The notes under the pieces: generated by a model
Database searches by the model: none
Told to the model about the DNA's origin: nothing
The model's input: only the letters and a program-made list of their open reading frames with translations
Translations under genes and position numbers: made by a program
In this document: in pieces, positions 23,906-25,990 of the stretch
Numbering within the stretch: the stretch's first letter is position 1
Layout: the number at the start of each line of letters is the position of its first letter
Source: Escherichia phage VEcB
Length of the DNA: 64,000 nucleotides
Sequence record: NC_052663.1
Direction: 5' to 3' (one strand)

Positions 23906-25990
23906 GTGGCAAGGAAACCTGTCAAACAATCTTTTGAAAATGTAGATATTGAAGTTAAAGCCCAACCTGGCAAACAAACATTAGCTATGGATCTTATGCC
24001 TGAAGTAATGATTTATGGTGGTGCGGCAGGTTGTGTTTCAGCAGAAACAGAATACTTAACAAGAGACGGTTGGAAACAAATAAGTGAATATGATGGTGAG
24101 GATATTTATCAATACAATCCAAGAAATAAACGTCTTGAATTAGTTACACCATCTTTTGTAGAATATGATGCTAAAGATAATTTGTATTGCATCACAAACG
24201 GAGTAGGTGTCTTCCAAGAATTAAGTATGGAACATCGCTTTGTTTTCTACAAGAAGAAAAAATCCAAAAAACATTTTGAAATTCTTGTTGGGGATCTTAT
24301 TGCACTACAGCAAGCAGGACACCCATTACGAGGATATATTGAAAATCCTTTTGGTAAACGTGTTCCGTTTAACATTCAAGGTAAACCTAGCACATACCTA
24401 AAAATTCATGAGGTAATGACAAGTGATGATAAGAAATATTGCTTTGAAACTCCAAGCAGTTATGTCGTGTTTAGACGTGGCGATCACATCTTCGTTACTG
24501 GGAATAGCGGCAAAAGCCGTCTGCTACTTCTAAAGGCACTTAAATACGCATATAAAGATCCACTGTTTGGTGGTATTCTTTTCCGTAAAAATACAACAGC
24601 TTTACGTAAATCTGGTGGTTTGTTTACTGAAGCTAAAAAACTTTATCTACCATTAAAGCCTCACGTAAGAGAACAGGCTATGGAGATGGAGTTCAGAGCC
24701 ACAAAAGGTGGTACACTTAAATTTGACCATCTTGAAAATGATAACGTAACTGCTGAAACTAACCATCAAGGTACACAGTATTCGATGGTGGGGTTTGACG
24801 AACTTACACATTTTACACAATATGAGATGCTATATCTGTTAGGGCGTATGCGTTCTGAATCAGAAACGTCTTTTATGCTGTGTACTTGTAACCCTGATGC
24901 GGATAGTTGGGTGTTAAAGTGGGTACTTCCTTATTTGGATGAAGCTGGTTATCCACGAGAAGATATGTGTGGCAAACAGCTATACTTTCTTATTGTGCAA
25001 GATGAACCAGTATTTGCTGAAACAGCAGAAGAGTTGAAAGAAAAGTATCCTGAAAACTGTTTTATGCAAAACCCAAACACAGGTGAAACAGTGGTTATTG
25101 AACCACAAACATTTGTGTTCATTGGTGGTACTATCTTTGATAACCCTGAACTAATAAGACTTAATCCTAAATACTTAGCTTCTTTGAAGGCTCAAACCGC
25201 CGTTAAGAGAGCACAGCTTTTAGATGGTTGTTGGTTTGCTCGTGCACAAGAAGAGAGTTTCTTTAACAGAGAATGGCTACACGTTATTAAGTTTAAAGAT
25301 TTACCAAACAATCTTAAATATATGCGAGCGTGGGATAAAGCAGTATCTGTTCCAACAGAATCTTATCGTTATCCTGACTACACAACATCTGTTAAAATGG
25401 CTAAAGACTCTGATGGAAATTATTACATTTTTGGTGATTATGATTATGATGCTCACGATGAAGGCAGTAAAATTTTTGGTAGATTCAGAAGACTACCAGG
25501 TGATCGAGATAATTTAATTCTAAACCAATGTAAGATTGATGGAGATGAAGTTACAGTTGTATTGCCAAAAGATCCTTCTGGTGCTGGTTTGATTGAATAT
25601 ACAGAATCAGCTAAAAAACTAATTGCTGAAGGGTTTGTTGTTAAACCAGATGCTATGCCTGGTAACAAGAAAAAATTACAACGTTTTATGCCATTTAGTA
25701 GTGCTTGTCAAAATGGTTTTGTTTATATTGTAGAAGAATCTTTCCCTAACAAAGAAACTCTTGATCATTTCTATAAAGAGATGGAGTCGTTTAATGGAGA
25801 AAGATCCACAGCAACATTAAAAGATGATATTCCAGATGCTGCTGCATCTTGCTTTAATACTTTGTCAAAAGAACAGATGTTTAAAGCAGTAGCAATACCT
25901 TCTGCAACAAATGCATTAACAGGGTACGGTAAGATGGGTGGAAGATCAAGAAACTCTTTATCTTCTCCATATAGTATCAGAGGAAGATAA
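23906..25990 (+). CDS. terminase large subunit, interrupted by a mini-intein in the Walker A motif
   Basis: 694 aa; extein P-loop YGGAAG...SGKSRLL reconstitutes GxxxxGKS; Walker B MVGFDELTHF; C-terminal nuclease-like region; GTG start with AGGAGGA RBS. Confidence 0.75.
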   Translation: MARKPVKQSFENVDIEVKAQPGKQTLAMDLMPEVMIYGGAAGCVSAETEYLTRDGWKQISEYDGEDIYQYNPRNKRLELVTPSFVEYDAKDNLYCITNGVGVFQELSMEHRFVFYKKKKSKKHFEILVGDLIALQQAGHPLRGYIENPFGKRVPFNIQGKPSTYLKIHEVMTSDDKKYCFETPSSYVVFRRGDHIFVTGNSGKSRLLLLKALKYAYKDPLFGGILFRKNTTALRKSGGLFTEAKKLYLPLKPHVREQAMEMEFRATKGGTLKFDHLENDNVTAETNHQGTQYSMVGFDELTHFTQYEMLYLLGRMRSESETSFMLCTCNPDADSWVLKWVLPYLDEAGYPREDMCGKQLYFLIVQDEPVFAETAEELKEKYPENCFMQNPNTGETVVIEPQTFVFIGGTIFDNPELIRLNPKYLASLKAQTAVKRAQLLDGCWFARAQEESFFNREWLHVIKFKDLPNNLKYMRAWDKAVSVPTESYRYPDYTTSVKMAKDSDGNYYIFGDYDYDAHDEGSKIFGRFRRLPGDRDNLILNQCKIDGDEVTVVLPKDPSGAGLIEYTESAKKLIAEGFVVKPDAMPGNKKKLQRFMPFSSACQNGFVYIVEESFPNKETLDHFYKEMESFNGERSTATLKDDIPDAAASCFNTLSKEQMFKAVAIPSATNALTGYGKMGGRSRNSLSSPYSIRGR
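24032..24505 (+). mobile_element. mini-intein (Hint domain, 158 aa, no homing-endonuclease domain) inside terminase P-loop
   Basis: begins with Cys (CVSAETEYL), ends ...DHIFVTGN followed by Ser +1; removal restores GGAAGSGKS. Confidence 0.6.

Follow-up and report, generated by a model that had tools for sequence, protein, structure and literature searches.

A probable cis-splicing mini-intein interrupts the large terminase P-loop of phi92-like and phAPEC8-like phages

Inteins that interrupt the ATPase domain of the large terminase subunit (TerL), including its P-loop, splice in mycobacteriophages, where, by prediction, the pentamer cannot accommodate the unspliced protein (Kelley et al., 2016, PMC5050341), and TerL is the commonest intein host among actinophages (Gosselin et al., 2025, bioRxiv 10.1101/2025.01.02.630785). 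According to a 2024 paper, no inteins were reported in coliphages. Here, we describe a 158-residue insert in the Walker A motif of TerL from Escherichia phage VEcB (sequence record NC_052663.1), a phi92-like phage of E. coli belonging to the genus Justusliebigvirus, within an analysed stretch of 64,000 nucleotides that we refer to as the window. Judged on its sequence and on a structural model, the insert is very probably a functional cis-splicing mini-intein that has become fixed in the TerL of phi92-like and phAPEC8-like phages (Stephanstirmvirinae).

Its nearest counterpart of solved structure is the AceL NrdHF intein, described as an ‘unusual’ member of class 3 (Hoffmann et al., 2020, PMC7891396), the class in which residue 1 is non-nucleophilic (PMC2807308). 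AceL NrdHF starts with Ala1, carries Ser65 (B:7), His68 (B:10), Arg69 (B:11) and Met70 (B:12) in block B, and relies on Cys124 (F:4) as its essential first nucleophile; its block F has a Pro-Gly kink and no F:13 His, and its C-terminus reads Thr144-Gly145-Asn146, followed by Ser+1 (PMC7891396). This intein splices in minutes, the G145H mutation abolishes its activity, R69A slows it and, in structure 6zgq, the thiol of the F:4 cysteine lies ~3 Å from the N-scissile carbonyl (PMC7891396).

The host gene in VEcB is an open reading frame on the plus strand with a GTG start and an AGGAGG ribosome-binding site ahead of it, and it shares 99.3% nucleotide identity with phi92 gp119, the terminase large subunit. 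Its product of 79.2 kDa matches PHROG 979 (E = 3e-221) and Pfam Terminase_6N (E = 1e-16 before and 8e-19 after in-silico splicing), while a match to Pfam Terminase_6C stays below threshold (20.4–20.7 bits against a cut-off of 22.6). It is a Terminase_6-type large subunit, with an N-terminal P-loop ATPase and a C-terminal RNaseH-like nuclease. Within it, the 158 in-frame codons, uninterrupted by any stop and reading CVSAETEYLT...RGDHIFVTGN, stand between the N-terminal flank ...EVMIYGGAAG and the C-terminal flank SGKSRLLLLKAL, so that in the precursor the P-loop residues Gly42 and Ser201 are set apart. The features of the locus, in window coordinates, are as follows (a slash marks a splice junction here and below).

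23906..25990, plus strand: TerL precursor open reading frame, 694 residues (Pfam, PHROG)
23906..24031, plus strand: N-extein, residues 1–42, ending in the first Walker A half, GGAAG (24017-24031)
24032..24505, plus strand: predicted mini-intein, 158 residues, 18.4 kDa, HINT fold, without an endonuclease domain
24032..24091, plus strand: block A, CVSAETEYLTRDGWKQISEY, with Cys1 at 24032-24034 and the family-invariant T6, E7 and W14
24212..24250, plus strand: block B, FQELSMEHRFVFY, with an SxxH motif
24224-24226 and 24233-24235, plus strand: block B residues Ser65 (B:7) and His68 (B:10)
24236-24238 and 24239-24241, plus strand: block B residues Arg69 (B:11) and Phe70 (B:12)
24434..24481, plus strand: block F, KYCFETPSSYVVFRRG, with Cys137 (F:4) at 24440-24442, Pro141 at 24452-24454 and no F:13 His
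24482..24508, plus strand: block G and Ser+1, DHIFVTGN/S, with Thr156 (G:5), Gly157 (G:6), Asn158 (G:7, 24503-24505) and Ser+1 (24506-24508)
24506..25990, plus strand: C-extein, opening with the second Walker A half, SGKS (24506-24517), then the remainder of the ATPase domain, with the RNaseH-like nuclease after it

We infer the roles of the block B residues from the mutagenesis of AceL NrdHF (PMC7891396).

A first-pass annotation made from the letters alone had already placed a Cys-first insert of 158 residues, ending in Asn and followed by Ser, in the terminase Walker A motif, and its boundaries prove exact to the base. It had also claimed that removing the insert restores a textbook motif; in-silico removal does yield YGGAAGSGKS, which fits the Walker A pattern GxxxxGK[ST], and intein-free homologues are contiguous at this point. 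Excision in silico lifts the Pfam Terminase_6N match from 61.7 to 68.6 bits and moves its start in the profile from position 8 to position 1, and it raises Terminase_3 from 19.6 to 26.8 bits, now above the Pfam cut-off. At 34.6%, the G+C content of the insert is near that of the remainder of terL (36.7%) and therefore offers no compositional sign of recent acquisition. An antisense or out-of-frame endonuclease gene within the insert was considered and ruled out, as no second open reading frame of at least 60 residues overlaps it on either strand in any frame.

Searched against the PDB with phmmer, the insert by itself returned spurious WW-domain matches only, so that a family profile was needed, and a word-indexed homologue search recovered just five fragments and was replaced by an exhaustive HMMER search. 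A profile of 15 mini-inteins (the insert plus 14 relatives) found one significant match of solved structure, 6zgq, the AceL NrdHF intein, at E = 1.4e-10. An AlphaFold2 model built on 14 family sequences (pLDDT 93.9, pTM 0.86) is all-beta with one helix and forms a single HINT domain. Foldseek against the PDB again ranked 6zgq best (E = 5e-8, TM 0.73–0.76), and the top 50 matches consisted exclusively of inteins, Hedgehog autoprocessing domains and BIL domains; the Msm and Mch DnaB inteins came at ranks 18–33 and were absent from the hidden Markov model (HMM) matches. Model and matches together establish the HINT fold computationally.

The exhaustive HMMER search, run with a 159-residue query against 1.84 billion cluster representatives, produced 734 matches at E ≤ 1e-3 from the single insert. 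With these matches, and with the profile match to a solved intein, a chance origin of the insert can be dismissed. A typical match falls into two stretches, covering query positions 1–75 and ~115–158 with a gap between them, as is characteristic of N- and C-terminal splicing lobes that flank an inserted domain. Within the top 150 proteins we delimited 159 elements, among them 14 minis of 139–189 residues, with the majority measuring 300–350 residues. The middle domain of the large relatives, ~180 residues in length, has no match in a sequence-profile search of the PDB; against Pfam it matched LAGLIDADG_3 in 12 of 20 cases, weakly to moderately (best E = 5.4e-7). Since this LAGLIDADG-like domain is missing from the phi92 element, the latter is a mini-intein, and the earlier reading of it as lacking an endonuclease holds up against relatives of 304–350 residues that carry one.

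Conservation across the family falls on the residues expected of a splicing element. Cys occupies position 1 in 158 of the 159; in block B, B:7 is Ser or Thr in 154, His68 (B:10) is present in all 159 and Arg69 (B:11) in 103, and B:12 is Val, Met, Ile, Phe or Leu but never Trp. Cys137 (F:4) recurs in 148 of 149, and Gly157 and Asn158 each in 149 of 149. The C-terminus is TGN in 128 elements and SGN in 31, and the +1 residue is Ser (72), Cys (47) or Thr (40). Two-thirds of the elements (106 of 159) sit at a site of the form G/[SCT]GK[ST]. Pfam assigned ten of the proteins that carry them to hosts as diverse as RecD-like, ResIII/DEAD and DnaB/primase helicases, SAM synthetase (MetK), RtcB and DUF444, and found no intein domain in any of the ten. 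Several metagenomic proteins (P0011, P0019, P0062, P0117, P0018 and P0074) contain two or three family intein copies in one polypeptide, with junctions such as ...VS/C..TGN/CGAGVGTT and ...YC/C..TGN/CGFGGR; the family therefore also homes to non-P-loop sites with Cys+1.

Among terminases, the same peptide bond is sometimes occupied and sometimes not. In an alignment of seven TerLs, the P-loop is contiguous in Vibrio phage 355E48.1 (52% identical; YGGSAG/SGKSRLL), FV3 (GGAAG/SGKSFLL) and wV8 (GGAAG/AGKT), and is interrupted by 159 residues in ZCKP1 (Phapecoctavirus), 146 in Vibrio phage PWH3a-P1 and 329 in the Vequintavirinae phage TH18, each of these inserts starting with Cys and ending TGN/S. 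The exteins of PWH3a-P1, with the insert, and 355E48.1, without it, are 72.5% identical. The in-silico spliced TerL was then compared with 5.8 billion proteins and its best 120 TerL homologues were classed: 61 are intein-free and contiguous at the site GGAAG/SGKS, and 34 have an intein at the identical position, in the form of minis of 146–159 residues, a 246-residue form and forms of 304–328 residues. Homologues of at least 69% identity are all 690–700 residues long and carry an insert of 158–159 residues; those of the next tier, at 63% (on contigs of ~150 kb), measure 514–517 residues and are uninterrupted; and at 48–56% there is a mosaic of intein-free proteins, a clade with the 146-residue mini, the single 246-residue form and the 304–328-residue forms. 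In GenBank phage genomes, most of them with a named bacterial host, the insert is present in 54 of 54 records with at least 99% extein identity, where it is identical or nearly so, and in 77 of 77 at 80–90%, where it is ~87% identical; this makes 131 of 131 at 80% or above.

This alternation of presence, absence and degeneration is the pattern expected of an intein homing cycle, and in the subfamily Stephanstirmvirinae the cycle appears, from these comparisons, to have ended in the fixation of an endonuclease-less copy. The first-pass annotation had named, as an observation that would tell against an intein, homologous terminases sharing the same residues as a conserved non-splicing domain. 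Superficially this is what the relatives of at least 69% identity display, with their constant 158–159 residues, but overall the comparison points the other way: the catalytic residues are conserved, distant homologues either lack the insert or carry it with an endonuclease, and the element recurs in unrelated hosts, all of which mark it as a fixed intein rather than a terminase-specific domain.

Purifying selection was gauged from the pair VEcB terL and Klebsiella phage ZCKP1, for which dS, at 1.7–2.0, is near saturation. The ratio dN/dS (omega) is 0.052 for the intein and 0.059 for the exteins, with amino-acid identities of 88% and 87%, respectively; by this measure the intein is as constrained as the terminase around it. 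The 64-kb window holds no second TerL and no second member of the intein family. Strong constraint on the intein would be expected if any splicing defect inactivated the only TerL.

Several observations weigh against a splicing intein. Neither Pfam nor NCBIfam returns a Hint or intein match at E ≤ 10, whether for the insert or for the whole of TerL. The canonical catalytic helpers are absent, there being no G:6 His, no F:13 His and no F:4 Asp, and B:7 is Ser rather than Thr. No intein-free allele occurs among close relatives at or above 69% identity, and the mobility of the phi92-type copy is thus not demonstrable. The silence of the standard models means that intein membership rests on the fold, the motifs and one solved relative. 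The profile search suggested at the outset came out divided, with nothing from Pfam or NCBIfam and a clear match of the family profile to 6zgq; the silence is a detection gap, uninformative about the splicing chemistry rather than in contradiction with it. As for the helpers, the first-pass annotation was right that Gly replaces the penultimate His, yet this Gly is invariant in the family and the G145H mutant of AceL NrdHF is inactive, so it is a functional, lineage-defining trait and not decay. With a HINT fold, Cys1, the SxxH of block B, a C-terminal Asn and Ser+1 all recovered computationally, the original mini-intein reading is borne out.

The two PHROG profiles touched by the element illustrate its effect on annotation. 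The TerL profile phrog_979 contains the intein as positions 17–172, and the intein's N-terminal lobe is also picked up, at E ~1e-11, by phrog_32482 (‘PhoH-like phosphate starvation-inducible’). Embedded inteins contaminate these profiles, and annotations could as a result be carried over from one ATPase to another that is unrelated.

Compared with AceL NrdHF, the VEcB element shares Ser65, His68, Arg69 and a hydrophobic, non-Trp B:12 at nearly the same numbering, an F:4 Cys with Pro four residues on, the lack of an F:13 His, the ending Thr-Gly-Asn/Ser+1 and a phage origin. The two differ in that AceL NrdHF has Ala1, and is class 3 by definition, whereas Cys1 is invariant in the phi92-type element; AceL NrdHF is also a natural split intein, with a GIY-YIG endonuclease gene between its halves, in the ribonucleotide reductase NrdHF, whereas the phi92-type element is contiguous and lies in the TerL P-loop. 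Identity between the phi92-type model and AceL NrdHF is only ~19%.

The TerL inteins of mycobacteriophages and other actinobacteriophages resemble it in occupying the TerL ATPase domain, Walker A included, in being minis in some cases and in that splicing has been argued to be necessary for the active site and the pentamer. However, they reside in Terminase_1 and other Terminase_6 hosts of Actinobacteria phages rather than coliphages, their ‘classic’ P-loop site is GK/T or one residue off, three residues downstream of the phi92-type site G/SGKS, and they are canonical class 1 or WCT class 3 inteins that standard models see, unlike the element described here. Canonical class 3 inteins with the WCT triplet (MP-Be DnaB, Msm and Mch DnaB-1) likewise have Cys F:4, Thr G:5 and Ser or Thr at +1 (PMC2807308, PMC7664689), favour the P-loops of phage-derived helicases and terminases, and have been proposed to be of phage origin; they differ in their non-nucleophilic residue 1, Trp B:12 and penultimate His, and, compared with the family of the VEcB insert, are not significantly similar by sequence profile and rank only midway by fold. 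Class 1 inteins without a penultimate His, as covered in the account of Chen, Benner & Perler (2000) given in PMC4031507 and exemplified by Ssp DnaE, share Cys1, a C-terminal Asn and splicing without a G:6 His, but in that account have Asp at F:4 and usually an F:13 His, in contrast to the Cys F:4 and absent F:13 His seen here. From the TerL and class 3 inteins already known, the phi92-type element differs in host clade (Enterobacteria myoviruses), in site (G/SGKS), in active site (Cys1, Cys F:4 and TGN) and in its invisibility to Pfam and NCBIfam.

In the splicing pathway that we propose, the 79-kDa TerL precursor would be translated with its P-loop split and unable to form. The 158-residue HINT domain would fold, bring the two junctions together and excise itself as an 18-kDa protein, and ligation of the exteins would give a 61-kDa TerL with an intact GGAAGSGKS and the predicted junction peptide QTLAMDLMPEVMIYGGAAGSGK; only then could the ATPase drive packaging. 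The calculated masses are 79.2 kDa for the precursor, 60.8 kDa for ligated TerL and 18.4 kDa for the intein. Chemically, an N-S acyl shift at Cys1 would be aided by block B residues Ser65 and His68, the N-extein would pass to Ser+1 either directly or through Cys137 (F:4), and Asn158 would cyclise without a penultimate His, its place probably taken by Arg69 (B:11), as in AceL NrdHF. The ancestor was probably a LAGLIDADG-bearing, P-loop-homing intein whose endonuclease was lost and whose inheritance would now be vertical.

Class features are mixed in this active site, since Cys1 is of class 1 type and Cys F:4 of class 3 type, with the usual F:4 Asp and G:6 His replaced by Cys and Gly. The counterpart of the WCT triplet here is Phe70/Cys137/Thr156, agreeing at two of three positions (class 3 AceL NrdHF has M-C-T), and the absence of a position-1 nucleophile that defines class 3 is not observed, Cys1 being present here as in 158 of 159 family members. 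Initiation by Cys1 is favoured because that residue has been kept across so many different exteins, while class 3 inteins are non-nucleophilic there. Conservation of this kind makes initiation of class 1 type, with Cys137 as an auxiliary that replaces the usual Asp helper, about an even bet. Considerably less probable, though still a serious candidate, is a two-cysteine relay in which a Cys1 thioester would give way to a branched thioester at Cys F:4 before transfer to the +1 residue. A broader proposal deserves a similarly tentative weight: that a large phage intein family for which no model exists, keeping Cys1, Cys F:4, Thr G:5 and Gly G:6, either uses such a relay or represents the ‘progenitor’ from which class 3 inteins of AceL NrdHF type arose by loss of Cys1.

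Rather unlikely is the rival that the intein splices by the class 3 route proper, in which Cys137 would attack the N-junction, a branched thioester at block F would transfer to Ser+1 and Cys1 would be dispensable. AceL NrdHF uses that mechanism and shares the S-x-x-H-R of block B, Cys F:4, Pro F:8 and the T-G-N end (PMC7891396); Cys F:4 and Thr or Ser at G:5 are family-invariant; by 2009, three WCT inteins had been described that carry Ser1 or Cys1, and class 3 inteins are typical of the P-loops of phage helicases and terminases (PMC2807308). Yet a dispensable Cys1 would not be expected to persist in 158 of 159 members at ~30–45% identity across many exteins; B:12, variously V, M, I, F or L, is never the Trp of the triplet; and the element has no special affinity in fold or sequence to canonical WCT inteins, as the mid-list Foldseek ranks of Msm and Mch DnaB and their absence from the HMM matches attest.

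Rather unlikely, too, is conditional splicing, by which a disulfide between Cys1 and Cys137 (or between Cys1 and another thiol), or sensitivity to redox state or metals, would gate TerL maturation and packaging. The two invariant cysteines are predicted to be adjacent in the active site, the F:4 thiol of 6zgq being modelled 3.0 Å from the N-scissile carbonyl, and purifying selection on the whole element is unusually strong (omega 0.052). The Msm DnaB class 3 intein is reportedly an oxidative stress sensor, and P-loop inteins have been proposed as sensors (PMC5050341). Against this, the idea is purely inferential and nothing in the sequence demands regulation; the constraint is equally explained by lethal splicing defects in an essential single-copy gene; and AceL NrdHF is fast and constitutive.

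Very improbable, on present evidence, is a retained non-splicing domain of HINT descent—an ex-intein—with TerL working around it or with self-cleavage of the BIL type only. Its retention at a constant 158–159 residues by all relatives of at least 69% identity, the lack of a penultimate His and of a Pfam intein match, and the inclusion of the insert in the terminase profile PHROG 979 are all compatible with such a domain. A P-loop NTPase, however, should not tolerate interruption of Walker A, and here the phosphate-binding loop itself is split at G/SGKS. All splicing residues have moreover been kept, even Asn158 and Ser+1, the loss of which would be open to a domain that does not splice, and dozens of unrelated proteins contain this element, bounded by the same termini; BIL domains lack a +1 nucleophile (PMC7664689). 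Two further readings, an insertion removed at the RNA level (a group I intron, or one that carries a homing endonuclease) and an error of assembly or annotation, are effectively refuted: nucleic-acid invaders do occur in the gene, as a separate ~976-bp insertion with an HNH open reading frame farther downstream in terL of some relatives shows, but the VEcB insert belongs to an uninterrupted in-frame reading frame with an omega of 0.052 and a confident HINT fold, holds no internal open reading frame in any frame, and recurs with little or no change in 54 independent phage records and at ~87% identity in another 77.

That ~976-bp insertion is found in some Justusliebigvirus terL genes (Escherichia phage cardinal and records named Campylobacter phage A150) at a point equivalent to window ~25128-25136, terL nucleotides ~1223-1231 (locus L010, 1524-2499), and is absent from the VEcB stretch. 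It holds a 227-residue open reading frame with an HNH-like motif and, from its sequence, is probably an intron or a free-standing homing endonuclease; together with the intein site, it means that at least two sites of terL have been invaded in Justusliebigvirus. In Escherichia phage vB_EcoM_TH18 (locus L008, 2911-6213), the 329-residue insert at this P-loop position of TerL is a full-size relative of the intein, and the gene is also split into three ‘terminase’ coding sequences, between which an HNH homing endonuclease is annotated; this points to multiple independent invasions. Two unannotated records of 146,366 bp, MG065639.1 and MG065689.1 (‘Campylobacter phage A150/A110a’, host C. jejuni), match the coliphage type with 100% identity in the intein and 99.8% in the exteins; the stated host is questionable, or the stock was contaminated.

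Around terL in the window, overlapping i-spanin (23231-23662) and o-spanin (23568-23897) reading frames adjoin the gene upstream, the latter with a lipobox-like LMMTGC, and the portal gene (26088-27656) lies downstream. In phi92, a large tRNA cluster is located farther upstream of terL and the spanins.

The record annotations listed for these terminases read ‘terminase’, ‘hypothetical protein’ or ‘large terminase with endonuclease’, and none of them names an intein. Our non-exhaustive literature search found nothing linking inteins to Stephanstirmvirinae terminases, although databases of the InBase type may list the element. In table S5 of the BASEL study, intein counts are 2 for PaulScherrer, 1 for JohannJBalmer and 0 for EmilieFrey (PMC8594841); all three phages carry the TerL intein at 100% identity, and the EmilieFrey TerL as a whole is 99.1% identical, so that a count of inteins made by comparative genomics missed the fixed mini-intein. 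What is new is thus an unannotated element, TerL P-loop inteins as such being already known. Since the family goes entirely unrecognised by Pfam and NCBIfam, surveys built on these libraries undercount phage P-loop inteins.

As a compact, 158-residue cis relative of the fast AceL NrdHF intein, the element offers a tractable system for class 1 versus class 3 chemistry in an E. coli phage scorable by plaques, and if the relay or progenitor reading is true, it would connect the class 1 and class 3 mechanisms, and would do so in a coliphage that is easy to manipulate. Some 130 sequenced phi92-like and phAPEC8-like coliphage genomes carry it, several of them from phages proposed for therapy. In phi92-like phages, packaging should depend on post-translational splicing, a step at which packaging could be controlled and which could serve as a target.

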